Assembly: GCA_902516235.1 (NCBI GenBank)
Contig: CABXXO010000002.1
Span: forward strand, 3,132-67,131
Direction of reading: 5' to 3'
DNA length: 64,000 bases
Source of the DNA: an uncultured Alphaproteobacteria bacterium
Lineage (GTDB): Bacteria; Pseudomonadota; Alphaproteobacteria; HIMB59
Part shown: positions 5,634 to 63,166 of the stretch, piece by piece
How the letters are laid out: every line of letters starts with the position of its first letter
Numbering within the stretch: the first letter of the stretch is position 1
Program-made: the position numbers and the translations under genes
The notes under the pieces: model-generated
What the model was told of the DNA's origin: nothing
Seen by the model: the letters and a program-made list of their open reading frames with translations, nothing else
Database searches by the model: none

Positions 5634-6648
5634 TTTAAAACAAGATGGATACGAAAGAGTATTACTAGCTGAAGAGCATGTAACTGGTTTTTATTCTATA
5701 ATAGCTATTCATAATACAAAAAGAGGTCCTGCTCTAGGGGGATGTCGTTTTTTTGGTTACCAAGGTGAAGATGATCAAAAAACAGATGTTTTGAAACTAT
5801 CAAAGGCTATGACCTATAAAAATTCTTTAGCTGACTTAGATTTTGGAGGTGGAAAAGCTACTATTAACTCTAGGGTTTCTAAAAATAAAATGTATGAACT
5901 TTATGGAAAAATGCTGGATCATCTTGATGGTTCTTACATTACTGCTGGAGATATAGGCATAGTGGATCAAGATTTAGTGGAACTAAAAAAACACTCTAAT
6001 TATGTCTGCAGCACTAAAGGTACTGACTCAGGTCAAAGCACAGCATACGGTGTTTTTAATGCAATATTGGGCTATAGTGAATTTAAGTACAACTCAAGTT
6101 CAATTGAAAATAAAAAAATTGTTCTTAAAGGTTTCGGAAAAGTTGGATCTAGACTAGCTCATTTTTGTAAAGAGGTAGGGGCTATAGTAGAGGTTGTTGA
6201 TTTTGAGTCTAATAGAAGTCTAATTGAGAACGCAGGATTTAAATTCCTTTCAAAATATCAGAATACATCCTTCGATAGCATAGATATATTCTCTCCTTGC
6301 GCAACAGGAGGAGATTTAAATACAGAATTTATTGAGTTTGCAAATTCTGTTAAAGTCGACTGTGTTATTGGTGCTGCAAATAACCAATTAGAAAACAATA
6401 CTATTGAGAAAAATTTATTTGATATGGGTATTACTTTTTGTCCTGATTATTGTGTAAATGCTGGAGGGGTAATTATTTTAGCCTTACGTTCAAGCATTAA
6501 AGAGGATATGGAATATTTAGATACTGAAGCAAAAAATAAACTTATTGGTATCAAAAACCAGCTAATTAAAATTTTAACTCTTTCAAAAGAAAAAAACCAA
6601 CTCACAACTGTTTCTTCGAATGAATTAGCTGAGGCAGGATTTCAATAG
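5614..6648 (+). CDS. Glu/Leu/Phe/Val dehydrogenase (leucine dehydrogenase-like)
   Basis: GPALGGCR, MTYKNS, GGGK, GFGKVG, GAANNQL, VNAGGVI motifs. Confidence 0.9.
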   Translation: MSLKFTDLKQDGYERVLLAEEHVTGFYSIIAIHNTKRGPALGGCRFFGYQGEDDQKTDVLKLSKAMTYKNSLADLDFGGGKATINSRVSKNKMYELYGKMLDHLDGSYITAGDIGIVDQDLVELKKHSNYVCSTKGTDSGQSTAYGVFNAILGYSEFKYNSSSIENKKIVLKGFGKVGSRLAHFCKEVGAIVEVVDFESNRSLIENAGFKFLSKYQNTSFDSIDIFSPCATGGDLNTEFIEFANSVKVDCVIGAANNQLENNTIEKNLFDMGITFCPDYCVNAGGVIILALRSSIKEDMEYLDTEAKNKLIGIKNQLIKILTLSKEKNQLTTVSSNELAEAGFQ

Positions 6649-53013: not shown

Positions 53014-54941
53014 TTTGTTTTAATTTTCCTTAATATTTTAGTTGATATATTTTTTATTGTTAACCCAAATTTTTTAAATACTTCATTCCCAGGAGCACTT
53101 GCGCCAAAATTATCTAATCCAAAAATATTTTCCGAATTTGTAAATTTATTCCAATACATGGTAGAGCCAGCTTCAATCACAAAAGTTTCATCTAATTTAG
53201 ACTTCAACAGAGTAATTTTAAAAGATCTAGATTGCTTTTCAAAAATTGATGAAGATGGCATTGATATTACTTTTACAGTAATCCTATTATTTTTCAAAAT
53301 TTCAGCAATATGAACAGCTAAAGATACTTCTGAACCAGTCGCTATAATCGTAATATCATTATTTTTTTTTGGTCCACTTATTACATAAGCCCCCTTGAAG
53401 TTTTTTGAATCTAATTTTTTGTAAGAAATCTGAGGCAAATTTTGCCTTGAAAGGCATATAAATGATGGAGCATCATCAATCTTTAAAGCCTCTCTCCAAC
53501 ACACTATTGTTTCTTTGAGATCACAAGGTCTAAAAATATAACTATTTGGAATTAGTCTTAACATATTAATTTGCTCTATAGGTTGATGAGTAGGACCGTC
53601 TTCACCCAAACCAATAGAGTCATGCGTGAAAACTTGAATAGGATCAATTTTCATTAAAGCAGCAAGGCGAATACTCGGCTTCATGTAATCAGCAAAACTT
53701 AAAAAAGTCCCTGAATAGGTTTTATAAATTTTAGTAGCTGCAATTCCATTCATTATTGCAGCCATTCCATGTTCTCTCACTCCATAATGAATATATTGAC
53801 CTTCCATGTTTTTACTATTCATGACAGACATCTCTTTACCTTTGGTATTATTAGAACCAGTTAAATCTGCAGAACCTCCAAGGATCGGATGATATCCTTT
53901 GATATAATTTAAGATCGTTTCAGAGGATTTTCTTGTAGCTTGATCAGAGTTAAAATTTTTTAAATCTAATTCTATCTTGTTGAATAACTTATCTATATCT
54001 TTTTTAGATAAATTTGAATGAATTATTGATTTAGACTTTTTGTATAACTTTTTATTCTTATCGGCAGATTTTCTCCAAATTTTTAAGAGCTTACTGGGAA
54101 TTTGAAATGGTTTTTCATTCCAAGATAATTTACTTCTTGTTAAATTAACTTCATCTGAACCTAAAGGTGAACCATGTGATGATGCTTTGGCAGACTTATT
54201 AGGTGAACCAAAACCAATAGTGGTTTTAAAATTTAGTAAACATGGAGCTCTTGAAAATTGCACTTTTTTAAATAAGTCATAAATATTTTTATGGTTATGG
54301 CCTTTACCATCATGCACTTCCCAATTTACTGACTTGAACCTTAGGTTTGTATTGTCACTAAAAGCTAAGTCAGTGGGCCCGTCAATACTAATATTGTTGT
54401 TATCATAAATTAATATCAAATTATTTAACTTTAGGTGCCCAGCTATACTTATTGCCTCTTGGCTAATTCCCTCCATTAAACAACCATCACCACAAAAGAC
54501 ATAAACTTTAGGGGTTTTTGATAATTTTTTTTCTTTTGATAACCTTTTAAGAGCTATTGCCATTCCAACAGCATTTGAAATTCCTTGTCCAAGAGGACCA
54601 GTTGTGATTTCGATACCTGCATCTGGTTCATATTCTGGATGCCCTGCAGTAATGGAGTTTAACTGTCTGAAATTTCTAATTTGAGATAATGTCATTTTTT
54701 TATAACCCGTGAGATATAAAAGTGAATAAAGTAACATTGAGCCATGCCCATTTGATAAAACGAATCGATCTCTAAGTAACCAACTTGGATCCTCTGGATT
54801 ATGAACAAGAAAATTATGAAAAAGAACTGTGGCTATGTCTGCCATTCCCATTGGCATACCTGGATGACCAGATTTTGCTTTTTCTACAGCATCTATTGAT
54901 AAAAATCTTATACAATTTGCTAATTCAGTGTAATTTTTCAA
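53010..54941 (-). CDS. tkt: Transketolase
   Basis: SGHPG, TTGPLGQG, GDGCLMEG, GEDGPTHQ. Confidence 0.98.
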   Translation of the reverse strand: MKNYTELANCIRFLSIDAVEKAKSGHPGMPMGMADIATVLFHNFLVHNPEDPSWLLRDRFVLSNGHGSMLLYSLLYLTGYKKMTLSQIRNFRQLNSITAGHPEYEPDAGIEITTGPLGQGISNAVGMAIALKRLSKEKKLSKTPKVYVFCGDGCLMEGISQEAISIAGHLKLNNLILIYDNNNISIDGPTDLAFSDNTNLRFKSVNWEVHDGKGHNHKNIYDLFKKVQFSRAPCLLNFKTTIGFGSPNKSAKASSHGSPLGSDEVNLTRSKLSWNEKPFQIPSKLLKIWRKSADKNKKLYKKSKSIIHSNLSKKDIDKLFNKIELDLKNFNSDQATRKSSETILNYIKGYHPILGGSADLTGSNNTKGKEMSVMNSKNMEGQYIHYGVREHGMAAIMNGIAATKIYKTYSGTFLSFADYMKPSIRLAALMKIDPIQVFTHDSIGLGEDGPTHQPIEQINMLRLIPNSYIFRPCDLKETIVCWREALKIDDAPSFICLSRQNLPQISYKKLDSKNFKGAYVISGPKKNNDITIIATGSEVSLAVHIAEILKNNRITVKVISMPSSSIFEKQSRSFKITLLKSKLDETFVIEAGSTMYWNKFTNSENIFGLDNFGASAPGNEVFKKFGLTIKNISTKILRKIKTK

Positions 54942-54976
54942 TGGAATAACTTTACTTAATAACTAATAATTAAAGT

Positions 54977-55237
54977 ATGAATGAATTTCAACAACAAATA
55001 CTCCAAAAAATTGAGCATATTGCAACAAAACTTCAAAATTACAAAACTAAGAATCAAAAATTGATGAATGAGATACAAGAATTGAAAGCAAAAATAGAAT
55101 ATCTCGAGAGAAGGGAGTCAGAATTAATTTCTGAGCAAGAAAATAATAAACTTGAGTTATCAGAAAAATCTCAACTTATTGAACAAGCTACAAATAAAAT
55201 TGAGGAACTTTTAGGTTCAGTTGATATTGATGGTTAA
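54977..55237 (+). CDS. Coiled-coil protein, ZapB/ZauP-like
   Basis: 86-aa heptad-rich ORF directly upstream of the zapA-like gene, divergent from tkt. Confidence 0.6.
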   Translation: MNEFQQQILQKIEHIATKLQNYKTKNQKLMNEIQELKAKIEYLERRESELISEQENNKLELSEKSQLIEQATNKIEELLGSVDIDG

Positions 55238-55562
55238 TTTAACTTTATTAATTGGAGGTATGCCTCTAAAAATACAGTGTGCTGATAATAATGTTGAGTC
55301 AGTTAAAGAAATCGCCGCTACAATTAGTAAACTAATACAAGATGAAAAAAAATTGAATGTTCCTTTTTTAACTTCCACACTTATTGCTTATTTAAAATCT
55401 ATGGAGGATGTATCAAATAAAGATAAAATATTACAAGAAACTCTGAATAAAAAATTATTATATGAAAGTCGCATTCAAGAATTACAAAATGAAAATCACA
55501 ATTTAAAATCAGACATCGAACAAATTTTTAAAAAATTAAATGACAATCTAATTGTTGAATAA
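55230..55562 (+). CDS. zapA: Cell division protein ZapA-like (divergent)
   Basis: MVNLTLLIGG...IQC N-terminal pattern plus C-terminal coiled coil; conserved tkt/zapA/ygfA position. Confidence 0.65.
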   Translation: MVNLTLLIGGMPLKIQCADNNVESVKEIAATISKLIQDEKKLNVPFLTSTLIAYLKSMEDVSNKDKILQETLNKKLLYESRIQELQNENHNLKSDIEQIFKKLNDNLIVE

Positions 55563-56118
55563 AAAACAAATACGCAATTATCACTTAGATCTTAGAATGA
55601 AACTTAGCACAGCTGACATAGATACTTTTTCAAATAAAATTAATACAAATATTATTGATCTTATTAAAAAATTTAATCCAAAAAATTCTGTTGGTTTGTT
55701 TTATCCATATAAAAAAGAAGTAGATGTACTGAGGATATCTAGAGATTTAATAAATAAAAACATTACTTGCTTACTCCCAAGAGTATTATCAAAAGATACT
55801 CCTTTAAAGTACTATGAATATAATCCTAATAATCCAAATTTAGAAAAAGGTTTTGGCGGGATAATGGAGCCTAAAGGTGAAATGCATATAAATCCTGATA
55901 TCATTATAGTATCTTGTTCTGCATTTAACGAACAAGGCTACAGGGTGGGTTATGGAGGAGGTTTTTTTGATAGAACTATTGAAGAGTTGAAAAAAAAAGG
56001 AAATTTAAAAACCATTTTAGCTGCCTTTGAAATTCAAAAAACTAACACAAACTTTCAAGAGAGTTTTGATCAAAAAGTTGATTACATTTGCTCAGAGCAA
56101 AAAATCTATTCTTTATGA
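55552..56118 (+). CDS. ygfA: 5-formyltetrahydrofolate cyclo-ligase
   Basis: K..IR, LPR, EP, G.RVGYGGGFFDRT. Confidence 0.92.
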   Translation: MLNKKQIRNYHLDLRMKLSTADIDTFSNKINTNIIDLIKKFNPKNSVGLFYPYKKEVDVLRISRDLINKNITCLLPRVLSKDTPLKYYEYNPNNPNLEKGFGGIMEPKGEMHINPDIIIVSCSAFNEQGYRVGYGGGFFDRTIEELKKKGNLKTILAAFEIQKTNTNFQESFDQKVDYICSEQKIYSL

Positions 56119-56930
56119 ATTTTTTAGTGATAGGTGATGTGGTTGGAAGGTCTGGTAGAATGGCTCTAAAAAAAAATTTAACTAAAATACAAAAACAATT
56201 CAATATTGATTTTACAATTGTTAATGCTGAAAATTCAGCAGGCGGTTTTGGGCTCACAGGAAAAATTTACGAGGATCTTATTAGCTGGGGAGCAGATGCT
56301 ATTACTTTAGGAAATCATGCTTGGAAACAAAAAGAGATAATTGGGTATATGGAGAAAAATCCTAATCACAGTATTATAAGGCCTTTAAACTTTGAAATAG
56401 GATCACCTGGAAATGGATTTAAAATTTTTACTCATAAAAATGGTAAAAGGATATTAGTAAGCCAAGTCCATGGCCAAACATTTATTGATTTTCCTTTGGA
56501 TAATCCTTTTAACTCTATTGACACACAACTTTTATCTATAATTAATGACCATAATATTGACTTCTCATTCTTAGAGGTACATGCGGAAGTAACGTCTGAA
56601 AAAAATGGCATAGCACATAATTATGATGGAAAATTTACTGCTATATATGGAACACATGTTCATATTCCAACATCAGATGCTAGGGTGTTAGATAGGGGAA
56701 CTTGCTTTCAAACTGATATTGGCATGACAGGTGATTATAATTCTGTTATTGGTATGAAAAAAGAAAATGCTATAAAAAGAATGAGGACCGGCTCAAACAC
56801 ACATAGGCTTGAACCAGCTGAAGGTATTGCAACTATCTCTGGAGCAATAATCACTACTAATGTCGAAAGGAAAAATACTATTCAATCTATTCAAATAGGT
56901 GGTGTTTTGGATGGTAATTTATTATCTTAG
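56115..56930 (+). CDS. ymdB: YmdB/TIGR00282 metallophosphoesterase
   Basis: GDVVG, NAEN, TLGNH, HAEVTSEK, GTHVH, TDIGMTG. ATG 56115 overlaps the ygfA stop (ATGA). Confidence 0.92.
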   Translation: MNFLVIGDVVGRSGRMALKKNLTKIQKQFNIDFTIVNAENSAGGFGLTGKIYEDLISWGADAITLGNHAWKQKEIIGYMEKNPNHSIIRPLNFEIGSPGNGFKIFTHKNGKRILVSQVHGQTFIDFPLDNPFNSIDTQLLSIINDHNIDFSFLEVHAEVTSEKNGIAHNYDGKFTAIYGTHVHIPTSDARVLDRGTCFQTDIGMTGDYNSVIGMKKENAIKRMRTGSNTHRLEPAEGIATISGAIITTNVERKNTIQSIQIGGVLDGNLLS

Positions 56931-56933
56931 TTC

Positions 56934-57674
56934 ATGGCAGGGCATTCCAAATTTAAAAATATACAATATCGTAAAGGTGCTCAGGATAAAAAAAGAGCAA
57001 AACAATTTGCAAAAATAGGTAGAGAAATTCAAATTGCAGTAAAAATAGGAGGAACAGACCCAGAGTCTAATCCTAGATTGAGATTAGCTATAACTAATGC
57101 TCGAAGTGTAAACATGCCAAAGGATAATGTGGACAGAGCAATTAATAAAAATAATACTGATACTGCGGATTACTCAGAAGTGCGTTATGAAGGGTATGGT
57201 CCTTTTGGAACGGCTTTTATAGTTGAGGCTTTAACAGATAATAAAAATAGAACAGCTTCTGAGATAAGATCTATTTTTTCTAAAAATGGAGGAAATTTAG
57301 GGGAGACAGGAAGCGTAAGTTTTAATTTTAATAAAGTCGGAGAAGTACAAGTAAAAAAAGAAATTGATGACAGTGTGTTAGAAGACTTACTTGACTATGG
57401 ATTAGAGGACTACAATACAGAGGAAGAGATAACATATATTTATTGTTCTTATGAGACATTAGCTTCACTAGAGAAAATATTACGTGAAAAAAAATTTGAA
57501 ATCGAAAGTGCTAATATTATTTGGAAGCCAAATCTAACTGTCAAAATTGAAAAAGGGGAAGAGCTAACAAAACTAGTCAAATTAAATGATGAACTAGAGG
57601 ATAATGATGATGTTCAAAATTGTTTTTCAAATCTTGATTTTGACACTAGTTTATTAGAGGTTACTAATGCCTGA
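56934..57674 (+). CDS. yebC: YebC/PmpR family protein
   Basis: MAGHSKF, NPRLR, YEGYGP, TDNKNRT, DDVQ. Confidence 0.97.
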   Translation: MAGHSKFKNIQYRKGAQDKKRAKQFAKIGREIQIAVKIGGTDPESNPRLRLAITNARSVNMPKDNVDRAINKNNTDTADYSEVRYEGYGPFGTAFIVEALTDNKNRTASEIRSIFSKNGGNLGETGSVSFNFNKVGEVQVKKEIDDSVLEDLLDYGLEDYNTEEEITYIYCSYETLASLEKILREKKFEIESANIIWKPNLTVKIEKGEELTKLVKLNDELEDNDDVQNCFSNLDFDTSLLEVTNA

Positions 57675-57993
57675 TAAAGCATGGAAGAATAGAGAGAGAC
57701 TCGTTGCAAAGTTTTTTGGTGGTTTGAGAAACGCGCTAAGCGGTATTAATTCTAAAGTTACTCATGCAGACGTAATTCACGATAATCTATTTATTGAGTG
57801 TAAATTAAGAGCTAAGCACTCGGCAATTAAACTATGGGATGACACAAAATCTTTTGCAGATAAGGAAAATAAAACACCAGTTATTGCATTATGTGAAAAA
57901 AATAGACCTGGTTTTTGGATAATGGTACATTCAGATGACTTTGATAAAGTTTCCAATGAGCTTAAAAATAAAAAAAAAGTTGAAGAAGAGTAA
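57667..57993 (+). CDS. Small PD-(D/E)xK nuclease, Hjc-like putative Holliday junction resolvase
   Basis: E10-R11, R21..S25-G26, D35, E44-C-K46 in 108 aa; sits in the usual ruvCAB position. Confidence 0.65.
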   Translation: MPDKAWKNRERLVAKFFGGLRNALSGINSKVTHADVIHDNLFIECKLRAKHSAIKLWDDTKSFADKENKTPVIALCEKNRPGFWIMVHSDDFDKVSNELKNKKKVEEE

Positions 57994-57996
57994 CAT

Positions 57997-58695
57997 ATGG
58001 AAGAAATAGTTAACTTAGCCGCCCTTGAGGGCTCTGTAGATTTCTCAATGATGGGAATGTTTCTCAAATCTGATTGGGTTGTCAAATTTGTAATTGTATT
58101 GTTAGTGATTTTTTCAATTCAATCTTGGAAGACAATCATTCAAAAAATTCTACTAATAAATAAAATAAAGAAAATATCCAAAAAATTTGAAAACCATTTT
58201 TGGTCTGGTGTCTCTTTGGATGAACTTTACCAGCAAATTGATGATTTCGATCAGGAAAGCTTCTCAAATATTTTTAGAAATATTATGAATGAGTACGAAA
58301 AATCTAGGATGCAAAAAAATAAAGTTGACTCTGCTTTTATTCAAAGACTTTATACCTCTCTTGATTTAAGTATCGCTGTTGAAGATACAAATTTAAATAA
58401 AGGATTGTCTTTTTTGGCCTCCTCTGGATCTGTGGCTCCGTTTATCGGATTATTTGGAACAGTTTGGGGAATTATGAATAGTTTTCAAGCGATAGCAATT
58501 GCTCAAAATACAAATCTCGCTGTAGTAGCACCTGGTATTGCAGAAGCTTTATTTGTAACCGCTTTGGGTCTTTTTGTTGCTATTCCCTCAACCGCTTACT
58601 ATAACCTCATTACTTCAAAAATTGATAATTATTTGTCAGAAGCTGAGAGTTTTGGTAAGGACTTAGTAAATATAATTTCACGTCAAGTTAATTAA
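57997..58695 (+). CDS. tolQ: Tol-Pal system protein TolQ
   Basis: FW, PFIGLFGTVWGIM, LAVVAPGIAEAL. Confidence 0.96.
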   Translation: MEEIVNLAALEGSVDFSMMGMFLKSDWVVKFVIVLLVIFSIQSWKTIIQKILLINKIKKISKKFENHFWSGVSLDELYQQIDDFDQESFSNIFRNIMNEYEKSRMQKNKVDSAFIQRLYTSLDLSIAVEDTNLNKGLSFLASSGSVAPFIGLFGTVWGIMNSFQAIAIAQNTNLAVVAPGIAEALFVTALGLFVAIPSTAYYNLITSKIDNYLSEAESFGKDLVNIISRQVN

Positions 58696-58699
58696 ACAT

Positions 58700-59095
58700 A
58701 TGAGAAAAAAACACCGACCTGTTTCTAGTATAAATGTCACACCTATGGTTGATGTTATGTTGGTTTTACTTATTGTATTTATGGTTACCGCTCCCCTCTT
58801 AACTGTAGGTGTTCCTGTAAATTTGCCAAAAGTTGAAGCTAATTCTTTAGATGCACAAAAGGAACCTCTAGAAATTTCAATTAATGATAATAATGATATT
58901 TACTTAGGTGAAGAACTAATACCTTTTGAAGAGTTAATACAAAAAGTAAAAACAATTGCTGGCTCCAATAAAGATATTAGAATCTTTTTAAGAGCAGACA
59001 CCACAATTGATTATGGCGAAGTCATGAAAGTCCTTGGAGCATTAAATACCTCTGGTTTTTTAAAAATTGCTCTCATTACGAAAAAACCAAGTTAA
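58700..59095 (+). CDS. tolR: Tol-Pal system protein TolR
   Basis: INVTPMVDVMLVLLIVFMVTAP. Confidence 0.95.
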   Translation: MRKKHRPVSSINVTPMVDVMLVLLIVFMVTAPLLTVGVPVNLPKVEANSLDAQKEPLEISINDNNDIYLGEELIPFEELIQKVKTIAGSNKDIRIFLRADTTIDYGEVMKVLGALNTSGFLKIALITKKPS

Positions 59096-60100
59096 TTGTC
59101 TACTATTTCACTATTTAATCCTTTCAGAAATTTAATCTTATTCATTGAAAATTTCAGTTATAAAAAAAGTGATTTTTATTTCCAAATATTCTCTTTTTTT
59201 TTACATCTTTTAATTTTAATACCGATGATAAATTTTACTTTTGAAAAAAAAATCAGTGATATTCCAATGATTTTACCTGTCGAAATGTTCATTATTGAAG
59301 AAGAGACAGCTGCACCTGAATTTGTTGAGGAGATAAATGAAATTGTTCCGACATTTCAAGAAGAGGCTCCTAAGAAGAATGAAACTAAGGCTATTGAACC
59401 AGAATTAAAAGAAATAACATCACAAGAACCAATTGACCCAATAATTCAGGACACTAATGAAGAGGTATTGATTGATAACTCCGCAGACAAAGCAAATGAA
59501 TTTATAATTGATGAAAAAGTTAAACCTGAAATTAAAAAACCAGAAGAGGAGACACCACCGCCAATTGAGAATGATTTTGAGATCAAATTAAAGCAAAAAC
59601 CTGAACCTAAGGAAATACCTGAACCCAAAAAGGATATCGAGATTGTTGTTAAGAAAAAGCCGGCAAAGAAAACTTTCAATGTTAGTACTGTTTTAAAAGA
59701 CTTAGAGAATGAGAACAAAGAATTCAAAAAAGAACAAGAAGCAGCTGAAATCAAACAAGAGGAAGTTTTCACAGAAAAAGTTGGACCAACGATGACTATT
59801 TCAGAAATTGATTTATTAAGGCAACAATTACATGGCTGTTTAAATCTTAATGTTGGTGTAGCTAATTTAAAAGAAATAAAGCCTGTCATTTATATTGAAG
59901 TTAACCCCGATAGAACAGTAAAAAGTTCTAAAGTAGTTAATAAAGAAAAATTGAATGATCCATCGTTTAGAACTGCTGCTGAAGCTGCGATGAGAGCAGT
60001 GAACAATCCAGATTGTAGCCCTCTTTTATTACCTGCAGATAAATATGAACAGTGGAAAGAAATTAATTTTACTTTTGATTTCAGCTGGATGTTTGATTAA
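59096..60100 (+). CDS. tolA: TolA-like energy transducer
   Basis: S...H TM anchor, E/P/K-rich linker, C-terminal AAEAAMRAV...PL.LP..KY..W; located between tolR and tolB. Confidence 0.8.
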   Translation: MSTISLFNPFRNLILFIENFSYKKSDFYFQIFSFFLHLLILIPMINFTFEKKISDIPMILPVEMFIIEEETAAPEFVEEINEIVPTFQEEAPKKNETKAIEPELKEITSQEPIDPIIQDTNEEVLIDNSADKANEFIIDEKVKPEIKKPEEETPPPIENDFEIKLKQKPEPKEIPEPKKDIEIVVKKKPAKKTFNVSTVLKDLENENKEFKKEQEAAEIKQEEVFTEKVGPTMTISEIDLLRQQLHGCLNLNVGVANLKEIKPVIYIEVNPDRTVKSSKVVNKEKLNDPSFRTAAEAAMRAVNNPDCSPLLLPADKYEQWKEINFTFDFSWMFD

Positions 60101-60145
60101 TAAAAATTTAAGATATAATTAGCAAAATATATTAAAAATATTCTT

Positions 60146-61465
60146 ATGATTAAAAAAATCCTATTAATTTTGTTTTTTTCACTAAACGCAAACGCTGCTC
60201 TAGAGGTAACAATTGCACAAGGAAAAGTTGAACCCACTCCCATAGCTATAACTCAGATATTTGGTACAGACTCAGACACTGCTAGATATGGTAATACTCT
60301 AAGACAAATCATTAACAATAATCTCACAAATTCTGGTCTTTTTTACACTGTGAATGAAGATCTTTATATTCAATCTGATAATTTAGTTGAAAAAATTCCA
60401 CGTTTTGAAGATTGGAAGCTAATTAAAGCACAGTTCTTATTAAGTGCAGATGTCAGTAAAACAGATACGGGGATTAGATTGCGCATGAGACTTTACGATG
60501 TATTTAATGGAAAAGAGATAGAAAAATTACAACTCACAATACCTGACGAAAATCTAATAAGAAGAGTAGGTCATACTGTAAGTGACATAGTTTATGAAAG
60601 AATAACTGGCGAGACTGGTTATTTTGACACAAGAATTGTTTATGTTTCAGAAATTGGTCCACTAGATCAAAGAGTAAAAAGATTAGCAATCATGGATCAA
60701 GATGGACATTTGGATAGTCATCAATTTTTAACAGACGGAAAAAATTTGGTTTTAACTCCTCGTTTTGCGCCAAATAATCAAATAATAACTTACATGGAGT
60801 ACAAAAATAATCTTCCAAGAGTTTATATTTATAATCTTAAAACTGGTGAAAGGGAAATTGTTGGAGACTTTCCTGGGATGACTTTTGCACCAAGATTTTC
60901 TCCAGATAGCCAAAGTGTGGTAATGTCTTTTTCAGATCCTGATAATGCAGCAAATTCTGAGATCTATTTAATGGATTTAAATACCCGATCTCGCTTAAGA
61001 TTGACAAACGACTCTGGAATTGACACATCCCCATCTTTCTCTCCCAATGGAGAGAGAATTGTTTTTAACTCTGATCGTGGTGGAAGTCCTCAATTATTTA
61101 TAATGGATAAGAACGGAGATAATATGAAAAGAATTTCAAAAGGGAGAGGTGTTTATGGAAATCCAGTATGGTCTCCAAGGGGTGACTTGATAGCTTTTAC
61201 AAAGTTAACTCAAGGTAATTTCCACATAGGAATTATGGACACAAATGGAAACAATGAAAGAGTAATAGTCAGGGATTTTTCTCTTGAGTCTCCAGCGTGG
61301 TCTCCAAATGGCAGGTATTTAATATTTCACAGACAAAAAAGGTCAAATCTTGATGGAACAGGTGGAGAAGTAACAATACATTTCATAGATATAACTGGAT
61401 ACAATGAGAGGCTTATTCCCACTCCAAGAGATGGAAGTGACCCCGCTTGGTCACCTTTGTTATAA
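60146..61465 (+). CDS. tolB: Tol-Pal beta-propeller protein TolB
   Basis: TGETGYFDTRI; repeated P.F/WSP blades. Confidence 0.97.
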   Translation: MIKKILLILFFSLNANAALEVTIAQGKVEPTPIAITQIFGTDSDTARYGNTLRQIINNNLTNSGLFYTVNEDLYIQSDNLVEKIPRFEDWKLIKAQFLLSADVSKTDTGIRLRMRLYDVFNGKEIEKLQLTIPDENLIRRVGHTVSDIVYERITGETGYFDTRIVYVSEIGPLDQRVKRLAIMDQDGHLDSHQFLTDGKNLVLTPRFAPNNQIITYMEYKNNLPRVYIYNLKTGEREIVGDFPGMTFAPRFSPDSQSVVMSFSDPDNAANSEIYLMDLNTRSRLRLTNDSGIDTSPSFSPNGERIVFNSDRGGSPQLFIMDKNGDNMKRISKGRGVYGNPVWSPRGDLIAFTKLTQGNFHIGIMDTNGNNERVIVRDFSLESPAWSPNGRYLIFHRQKRSNLDGTGGEVTIHFIDITGYNERLIPTPRDGSDPAWSPLL

Positions 61466-61588
61466 AAATTCATTAAAAATCAACAAATTATTATAAAAAT
61501 TAAATAAAAATTGTCTTGATTTCCAAAAAATTCAGTGTTTATTTACCTAAACTATAGTAAGAATATATTTACGCGGAGATTTATAATA

Positions 61589-62083
61589 ATGTTAAAAAAA
61601 TTGTTTATGCTTATTGTTGCGGGTTTTTTCCTTGCTTCATGTGCTGCCACTAAGACAGAAGAAGGTGGAAACGTTGATGCAGCTTCAACTAGCGCAAGTT
61701 CATCCTCGGGAGGTGAAATTACAGCTGGAACTCAAGAAGACTTGATTGTCAATGTAGGTGATAGAGTGTTTTTTGAATTTGACAGCTCAGAACTCACTGT
61801 TGATGCTCAAGCAACGCTTGACGCTCAAGCAGCTTGGTTAATGCAGTACCCTGACACTAACATAACTGTTGAAGGTCATGCTGACGAAAGAGGCACCCGT
61901 GAGTACAACTTGGCTTTAGGAGATAAAAGAGCATTTTCTGTTTACTCTTATCTTGCTCAGGCAGGTATTGACACCAACAGAATGGAATATGTAAGTTGGG
62001 GGAAAGAAAGACCAGAAGTTATTGGGTCTGATGAAACCGCTTACAGTCAAAATAGACGCGGCGTTACAATAGTAAGTAATTAA
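61589..62083 (+). CDS. pal: Peptidoglycan-associated lipoprotein
   Basis: GGAG RBS before ATG 61589, lipobox LASC, EGHADERGTREYNLALG, NRR. Confidence 0.96.
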   Translation: MLKKLFMLIVAGFFLASCAATKTEEGGNVDAASTSASSSSGGEITAGTQEDLIVNVGDRVFFEFDSSELTVDAQATLDAQAAWLMQYPDTNITVEGHADERGTREYNLALGDKRAFSVYSYLAQAGIDTNRMEYVSWGKERPEVIGSDETAYSQNRRGVTIVSN

Positions 62084-62094
62084 TAAAAATTTCA

Positions 62095-62128
62095 TTAGGG
62101 TGCTCTTTTTATTTGAAAGAGCACCTAA
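62095..62128 (+). terminator. Hairpin after pal
   Basis: GGTGCTCTTT-N7-AAAGAGCACC inverted repeat. Confidence 0.75.
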
Positions 62129-62134
62129 AACTTT

Positions 62135-63166
62135 ATGAAGAAAATAAACAAAATATTGGTTATTTTTTTTCTTCTCTTTTTTAACAACCACGCACTTTCT
62201 GAAAAACACAATAAAATATCTGTAGAAATAGACAGAATTAAAAATGATATAATTGATCTTCAAAAGTTTGTTTATAAAAATGAGTCGTCATTAGAAAATT
62301 ATAATGACTCAAATGACGATACTAAATTAGATGAATTAAAAATACTTATTAATGATATTTCAAAAAGTGTAACTTCATTGGAAAAACAAATTTTGGATAT
62401 TAAAGATGATGTCAGTAATTTGTACTCCTTATACACATCATCTAATTTTGATGAAAAAAAAATAATTAGTACATTTGATCAACTAAATATAGAGGAAAGT
62501 TCCTCAAATATTGTGGAAAACTCAGAAGATGATCAGTTATTAGGTCAAATTAGTCTTTCTGAGCTTGAGGTAGATAAAGTATCAACAATTGACAACTCTA
62601 ATGTTGAGATCGAAGAAAAAACTTCTTCGTTAAGTATTGAAAAAGAGGAATTAGATGATGTTATCGAAATAAAATCTATATCAGAAATTAATGTTTCTAT
62701 GCTTAATGATTTGGACCAACTAATAAAAGACAGAGAAATTGAGTTAAATAAGCCGATAATTGACGTCCAAGAAGAGTTAAATAATGCTAAAACAAGTTAT
62801 GCAAGTTTTAACAACAAGTCTGCTATTGAGAGTCTGCTCCTAATAGTCAATTCAAACACAGATCAAAAAGAATATTTGGCTGAAACTTATTATCTTCTTG
62901 GTAGAACTTATTTTATGGAGAATGAGATAATTAAAGCTGTAAAATATTTTGGTATCAGACATAGAGATTTCTCTTCATTTCCAAAATTTAGATCTGAAAA
63001 CTATTTTTGGCTAGGAAAGTCACTATTTAGTATAGGTGATCAAGAAAACGGTTGTTTAATTATGGAAGACCTAATTTTCTCTAATACTTACATTGAAAGC
63101 AAAAAAGTCATTGAGTCAGCAAAATCACTTCAAACCGAAAAAGACTGTGGTTTGATTATTGATTAA
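62135..63166 (+). CDS. cpoB: CpoB/YbgF-like protein (coiled coil, acidic linker, C-terminal TPR)
   Basis: Signal peptide, YYLLGRTY TPR-like helices and terminal Cys pair; located between pal and tilS. Confidence 0.72.
   Translation: MKKINKILVIFFLLFFNNHALSEKHNKISVEIDRIKNDIIDLQKFVYKNESSLENYNDSNDDTKLDELKILINDISKSVTSLEKQILDIKDDVSNLYSLYTSSNFDEKKIISTFDQLNIEESSSNIVENSEDDQLLGQISLSELEVDKVSTIDNSNVEIEEKTSSLSIEKEELDDVIEIKSISEINVSMLNDLDQLIKDREIELNKPIIDVQEELNNAKTSYASFNNKSAIESLLLIVNSNTDQKEYLAETYYLLGRTYFMENEIIKAVKYFGIRHRDFSSFPKFRSENYFWLGKSLFSIGDQENGCLIMEDLIFSNTYIESKKVIESAKSLQTEKDCGLIID

Follow-up and report, generated by a model that had tools for sequence, protein, structure and literature searches.

RuvABC, which cuts DNA crossovers, is textbook core machinery of bacterial recombination. 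RusA together with RecG bypasses E. coli ruvABC mutants, and the usual gene order places ybgC after ruvB and before tolQ. PMC3403352 documents the yebC-ruvC operon, shows it to be linked to ybgC and the tol genes, and names two known alternatives: RecU, and RusA/RecG. RecU is a PD-(D/E)xK resolvase found in place of RuvC in a large bacterial group, the Firmicutes/Mollicutes (PMC3403352). The locus described here lies in a stretch of 64,000 nucleotides (hereafter the window; contig CABXXO010000002.1) from an uncultured alphaproteobacterium of the HIMB59 order. Directly downstream of yebC, at the usual place of ruvC, the window carries a gene for a small, phage-type, Hjc-like nuclease that probably does the job of RuvABC. 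An order of very abundant ocean bacteria appears to be without RuvABC, with a phage-type nuclease of some 100 residues at its chromosomal place. Literature searches found no paper on RuvABC loss or an Hjc-like replacement in HIMB59, SAR11, or SAR86, and none linking HIMB59 or AEGEAN-169 with ruvC or the Holliday junction.

RuvA, RuvB, and RuvC were not found in the window's own genome. That assembly is 68.65% complete and by itself proves little, so relatives were searched: 61 genomes of the order, drawn from two GTDB families, with 17 genomes at 90% completeness or better. None of the 61 has a match above the curated cut-off for RuvC, RuvB, or RuvA. All three were likewise not found in G090, a closed, single-contig genome of the window's own genus (99% complete), and a search of 187 genomes of the order (22 of high quality) recovered no RuvB. 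It is barely credible that RuvABC is present but missed, through assembly gaps or divergence, leaving the nuclease as an accessory. The incompleteness of the window's genome would allow it, as would the failure of the Pfam RuvC model to detect a divergent RuvC-like protein in another alphaproteobacterium, G175. Because of that failure the phage-type model phrog_1770 was also searched: it matched in 0 of 18 high-quality genomes, with the positive control found at 1e-35. RuvB, moreover, is a highly conserved marker, and the closed genome leads us to reject loss of the Ruv genes in assembly gaps.

The rest of the recombination apparatus was surveyed in five high-quality genomes of the HIMB59 order (G090, G004, G022, G024, and G037). 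RecA is present in all five, as is RuvX/YqgF; RusA and RecU were found in none of the five, and RadA/Sms (TIGR00416) in none at E<=1e-20, in a search that recovered it from 10 of 10 bacterial control genomes. RecG (about 692 residues), encoded next to mfd, occurs in 52 of the 61 relatives and in G090. The lineage therefore retains RecA and a branch-migration motor, RecG, in genomes, one of them closed, in which RuvA, RuvB, and RuvC were not found. The preliminary description of this DNA, made from the window alone, had proposed a Ruv-less system that perhaps relies on RecG or RadA for branch migration; the searches bear out the first part and, for the motor, favor RecG over RadA.

It had also called for a test of mutual exclusion between the nuclease and Ruv genes, and the pattern it expected was found. 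An even sample of the class holds RuvC in 284 of 301 genomes and the nuclease in four, all four without RuvC. (The tally takes in one unpublished genome, G100, on which no claim rests.) A further 400 genomes sampled from the phylum yielded no carrier.

Within the order, homologs of the nuclease gene are present in 56 of the 61 relatives, including 17 of the 17 high-quality ones. The gene is single-copy and occupies the same slot across at least three GTDB families: YebC and TolQ flank it at 94 of 97 genomic loci, so the earlier claim of a position between yebC and tolQ extends well beyond the window. The order ymdB-yebC-X-tolQ-tolR, where X is the nuclease, holds in G090, G037, and G247, the last of which lies outside the order, in a different family, and has a nuclease 60% identical; ymdB is at the same upstream position in G247, G175, and G114. 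The gene is under purifying selection, with a median ratio of nonsynonymous to synonymous substitution rates (dN/dS) within the genus of 0.041, against 0.084 for yebC and 0.023 for tolQ. Its spread among relatives and this ratio show that it is not a chance open reading frame; the ratio likewise rejects the pseudogene reading. Between families the nuclease is 72-73% identical, YebC and TolQ 46-55%, which could reflect either very strong constraint or later phage-mediated replacement.

The reading frame runs from an ATG at 57667 to a TAA at 57991-57993. Its start shares 8 nucleotides with the end of yebC, reading ATGCCTGA; an AGAGG Shine-Dalgarno-like box lies at 57656-57660, 6 nucleotides upstream of the ATG; and the tolQ ATG, at 57997, follows 3 nucleotides past the nuclease stop. 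This is the layout first described, and the sequence confirms it. The overlap was checked in three relatives and is known from the window's genus only: it is kept in G090, with short gaps in G037 and G247. We infer from it that translation of the nuclease would be coupled to that of yebC. The flanks are core genes by Pfam (ymdB, yebC, and tolQ), in line with the core operon first described.

The argument gains most from what other alphaproteobacteria keep after yebC. Seventeen genomes of the class sample are without a Pfam RuvC; four of these carry the Hjc-like nuclease. Four genomes (G175, G332, G213, and G357) encode a phage RuvC-like protein of about 165 residues matching phrog_1770 (best 1.1e-35). 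Proteins of this type, from two alphaproteobacterial families, match at 1e-35 to 1e-21, start with MIVFGIDPG, and are missed by Pfam RuvC. Two others, G114 and G286, encode a 168-residue PDDEXK_15 (PF24608) protein (1.6e-21). In each of these genomes the gene is directly downstream of yebC, and next comes tolQ, with or without ybgC ahead of it, or, in G114, tilS. At least three enzyme types have thus filled the slot: Hjc-like, of PHROG 2002 (the HIMB59 order and G247); RuvC-like (two GTDB families); and PDDEXK_15 (one family). G247, G175, and G114 were searched for RuvA and RuvB, which were not found, and are without a Pfam RuvC; G175 and G114 keep RecG. (G175 represents the phrog_1770 carriers in the RuvA/RuvB search; G286 was searched for Pfam RuvC, which was not found.) Different junction-type nucleases in the same slot of Ruv-less genomes are the strongest comparative argument for functional replacement of RuvC. 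Whether a swap of RuvC, or RuvABC, for a captured phage junction nuclease is a recurrent outcome of streamlining in marine bacteria, always directly downstream of yebC, we regard as evenly balanced.

The remaining seven RuvC-less genomes of the class are mostly fragmented assemblies. In G277 and G165 the contig stops just past yebC. One of the seven, G343, is closed and 99% complete, and RuvA, RuvB, RuvC, and all three replacement nucleases were sought there and not found; the 1.5 kb past its yebC (L111, 1987-3465) holds no open reading frame of at least 70 codons.

The protein belongs to a phage family. It matches PHROG 2002, a phage DNA-metabolism family named 'Holliday junction resolvase', significantly and over nearly its full length (E 1.2e-8; residues 3-107 against positions 16-125 of the 130 in the profile hidden Markov model, or HMM), and 57 members of a diverse set of 63 relatives match the same profile. 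When 1.84 billion cluster representatives were searched exhaustively by HMM, 1093 relatives passed E<=1e-3 and 619 passed E<=1e-10. Aligned with one another, the 63 diverse members, whose identity goes down to about 37%, show K7, E10, R21, D35, and K46 invariant in all 63, and W6, R11, S25, G26, and E44 conserved in at least 90%. The motifs run E10-R11; R21 to S25-G26; D35 (codon 57769-71); E44 (57796-98); and K46 (57802-04). Every residue of the motif layout read from the window is therefore present, and E10, D35, E44, and K46 are the predicted catalytic residues.

The fold was predicted with AlphaFold2 (AF2), at a predicted local distance difference test score (pLDDT) of 83.9. The model has a helix at 5-17, a short strand at 35-36, a strand at 41-46, a helix at 53-66, strands at 70-75 and 84-86, and a C-terminal helix. 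This helix-strands-helix-strands-helix order reads as a predicted PD-(D/E)xK core, with E10 on the first helix, D35 on the short strand, and E44 and K46 on the next. In an all-against-all structural search of the model against 48,161 PDB chains, the best match was Pyrococcus furiosus Hjc (1gef; Z 6.8, root-mean-square deviation (rmsd) 4.6, 94 residues aligned, 21% identity), followed by Archaeoglobus fulgidus Hjc (2wcw, Z 6.5) and Hje (1ob8, Z 5.7); Thermus phage 15-6 Hjc (7bgs) matched at Z 5.3 with an rmsd of 2.9. All top matches are PD-(D/E)xK nucleases, which, with the predicted core and the conserved E10, D35, E44, and K46, places the protein in that superfamily. The structurally nearest clusters in the ESM Atlas and BFVD are viral, and Atlas neighbors at template modeling (TM) scores of 0.60-0.65 are PDDEXK_15/Hjc clusters.

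A homodimer model scored 0.60, against 0.00 for the best of three controls; the runs share at least 97% of contacts, and the partner pLDDT is at least 72. For calibration, 20 of 30 proteins solved as one-chain pairs reach that score, as does 1 of 23 solved as single chains. Homodimer binding is supported by the model, though not demonstrated, and since Hjc dimers have already been solved, the pass may reflect likeness to them.

Other sequence searches add little. PDB sequence searches with the protein, and with profiles A1 and A2 (A2 from the diverse alignment), returned nothing meaningful. The sole Pfam match is to DDE_Tnp_IS1595, at chance level (E 0.099). PF24608 does not match the window protein and matches 3 of the 63 relatives weakly (best E 0.0027). 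The identities UPF0102/YraN, VRR-NUC, RusA, and RecU were dropped, as no HMM matched.

Several points weigh against an Hjc-type junction resolvase. The function name of PHROG 2002 is an annotation. Structural Z values of 5-7 lie in the middling range of the tool, and other PD-(D/E)xK nucleases follow close behind (Z 5.5-5.0). Foldseek against the PDB gave no match at E<=0.001, and its Hjc rows (probability 0.8-0.95, E about 0.05) stand among rows of influenza PA endonuclease. The Pfam Hjc model (PF01870) matches neither the window protein at E<=1 nor any of the 63 relatives at E<=0.01, and the same model scores the viral Hjc SIRV2 ORF121, as a control, at 8.8e-20. The spacing from D to E is 9 residues here (D35-E44) and 13 in Sso Hjc (D42-E55). 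Comparison of the A2 profile with SIRV2 Hjr by hhalign gives a probability of 2%, too weak for homology, with the ExK columns aligned. The dimer model has 214 contacts over most of the chain, beyond a simple two-fold interface, and so extensive an interface may be an artefact of chains intertwined with or laid over each other. Because phage resolvases often act promiscuously on branched DNA, specificity for junctions does not follow; and RuvX/YqgF could in principle resolve junctions. Given the moderate Z values and the nearness of other PD-(D/E)xK nucleases, the fold class is secure, and it takes fold and motifs together to tie the protein to Hjc. Thus the earlier identification as an Hjc-like PD-(D/E)xK protein agrees with the predicted fold, the motif order, and PHROG 2002, and fails with Pfam Hjc; its structural check succeeded in the PDB search, where Hjc and Hje came out on top, and fell short in Foldseek.

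The reading we prefer, and consider likely, is that RuvABC has given way to a resolvase captured from phage, which works together with RecG; junction cleavage, action as a dimer, and the partnership with RecG are the parts of it that we infer. An ancestor of the HIMB59/AEGEAN-169 lineage would have captured a phage nuclease gene that became fixed directly downstream of yebC, with RuvA, RuvB, and RuvC lost afterward or already before. RecA would make the joint molecules; RecG, the only known branch-migration helicase retained, would move the junction; a nuclease homodimer would make paired metal-dependent nicks through E10, D35, E44, and K46; and ligase would seal the nicked products.

A different main task for the nuclease is unlikely, though it deserves weight: the protein could be a domesticated phage nuclease of branched DNA that acts chiefly on, for instance, stalled or reversed forks, flaps, or D-loops, with junctions left to RuvX/YqgF or to dissolution by a helicase and topoisomerase. 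The moderate Hjc fold match and the presence of RuvX in the five high-quality genomes are compatible with this, as is the place of the phage homologs between terS and terL, where they would be expected to debranch DNA before packaging and not to be specific for Holliday junctions. RuvX, however, is found in all ten bacterial control genomes, eight of which also have RuvC; since it is common beside RuvC, it does not explain why a nuclease became fixed exactly at ruvC's place. Nor would this account for three phage-type junction nucleases sharing the post-yebC position in class genomes without a Pfam RuvC.

The phage relatives are close. In IMG/VR, 158 viral loci carry homologs of 67-77% identity, and on phage contigs of about 37 kb the homolog lies between terS and terL. 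One such contig (36.6 kb; L113) reads helicase, HNH nuclease, terS, homolog, terL, portal, protease, and major head protein; its homolog (6001-6288; 95 residues, 75% identical) overlaps terL by 4 nucleotides. This position, with the overlap, suggests a role in debranching DNA at packaging. The phage copies are without the K/E-rich C-terminal tail and have a core of the same length. Many of the contigs bearing a homolog measure 36-38 kb and may be whole phage genomes.

The two settings are distinct: TerL is found at 79 of 83 viral loci and YebC or TolQ at 0 of 83, and TerL and portal probes match 0 of 97 genomic loci, in keeping with the original observation that no phage genes surround the nuclease. 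In the tree each of the two bacterial families is well supported (95 and 97) within a grade of phage sequences, and G247 falls outside; the tree rests on 97 columns and is poorly resolved, and a single bacterial clade survives the approximately unbiased (AU) test (p-AU 0.266). Since viruses make up the great bulk of the wider family, a phage-to-host capture is the more economical assumption, not a proven one.

The same viral ancestry would suit a selfish or defense-related remnant (a homing or restriction-like nuclease, or a superinfection-exclusion factor) that happened to land beside yebC. The nearest Atlas clusters are 96-100% viral, no other carrier appeared among the 400 phylum genomes, and one distant member adjoins genes for a helix-turn-helix regulator and an excisionase-like protein. 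We consider such a remnant very improbable in view of the single copy, the constancy of the slot across families, and the want of TerL or portal matches. Its dN/dS is comparable to that of its housekeeping neighbors; Pfam finds no other domain; and beside yebC and tolQ no partner, immunity, or methylase gene is apparent.

Features of the locus, and of two other loci with a nuclease after yebC, are collected below.

Table. Genes and sites at the window locus, with the corresponding genes of two other genomes.
Feature	Location	Strand	Basis or context
108-residue phage-type Hjc-like PD-(D/E)xK nuclease, candidate Holliday junction resolvase	57667..57993	+	Open reading frame; PHROG 2002; AF2
yebC (TACO1/YebC family)	56934..57674	+	Pfam PF01709 5.8e-53, PF20772 4.7e-29
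ymdB-like phosphoesterase, upstream neighbor	56088..56930	+	Pfam PF13277 1.8e-87
tolQ	57997..58695	+	Pfam MotA_ExbB 4.6e-34
tolR	58700-59095	+	Gene order and appearance; ExbD/TolR tested on the G247 ortholog only
tolA-like	59096-60100	+	Gene order, inspection
tolB	60146-61465	+	Gene order, inspection
pal	61535-62083	+	Gene order, inspection
yebC/nuclease junction	57656..57674	+	Shine-Dalgarno-like box, ATG, and 8-nucleotide overlap read from the sequence
phrog_1770-type protein, G175	L109 968-1465	minus	After yebC, before ybgC-tolQ; likewise in L197, L198, L199
PDDEXK_15 nuclease, G114	L108 945-1451	minus	After yebC, before tilS; G286 counterpart at L201

A scan of 54900-62300 found fewer promoter-like sites than in shuffled sequences, and no plus-strand terminator ahead of the end of tolB. 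The slot in the window (57994-62083) holds no ybgC, tolQ following the nuclease directly; G175 retains ybgC. Farther upstream (54977-55562), ahead of a 188-residue open reading frame and ymdB, two overlapping small reading frames (86 and 113 residues) encode coiled-coil proteins that look like ZapB/ZapA-type cell-division proteins.

If the nuclease does resolve junctions, RecG and an Hjc-like dimer would make up the smallest natural pathway known in bacteria for completing recombination. Its gene would then clearly exemplify a phage gene turned essential housekeeping gene, and biochemists would have a simple target in it. That the post-yebC slot has been used repeatedly bears on the unexplained linkage of yebC and ruvC. 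If such replacement is indeed a recurrent outcome of streamlining, RecA, RecG, and one small phage resolvase would suffice for the end-game in some of the most abundant cells of the ocean, and what selection preserves would be the yebC-linked expression slot, not the enzyme. There is a consequence for annotation too, as these nuclease genes are all labeled 'hypothetical protein' while Ruv genes serve as universal markers.

Among described enzymes, the nearest in likeness are the archaeal Hjc and Hje proteins (PF01870; 1gef, 2wcw, 1ob8, 1hh1) and viral Hjc (SIRV2 ORF121, 7bgs), which share with the window protein small size (about 100-140 residues); the fold; the order of motifs (E-R on helix 1, an R-x-x-x-S-G loop, D, and E-x-K); and a homodimer, here predicted. 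In a MAFFT alignment the SIRV2 ORF121 motifs YK..E, R.P.SG, and ExK align with K7, E10, R21, S25-G26, and E44-x-K46. The order ER, R.P.SG, PD, ExK can also be read in Sso Hjc and Hje, with E12, D42, E55, and K57 the residues of Sso Hjc. The window protein differs in being bacterial, chromosomal, phage-derived, and outside the Pfam Hjc model. Its closest kin by sequence, the marine phage members of PHROG 2002, sit between terS and terL, whereas the window copy sits in a cellular core operon. PDDEXK_15 (PF24608), a putative phage PDDEXK endonuclease, is a neighboring family that uses the same slot in G114 and G286; hhalign against the G114 protein gives a probability of 7%, too weak for homology, with the ExK columns aligned.

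At the level of the system, the arrangement would be a non-orthologous displacement of a resolvase, for which RecU and RusA are the precedents. RecU lineages, in contrast, keep RuvAB; recU is unlinked to yebC; and RecU is larger and was not found here. The closer parallel is RusA with RecG in E. coli, where a prophage-derived dimeric resolvase and RecG replace RuvABC; RecG is kept here as well. RusA, whose fold is unrelated, was not found here; in E. coli it acts as a cryptic suppressor, and the Hjc-like nuclease by contrast belongs to the fixed wild-type state of an order. If the preferred reading is true, the HIMB59 locus is a fixed, natural counterpart of the laboratory bypass of E. coli ruv mutants by RusA and RecG.

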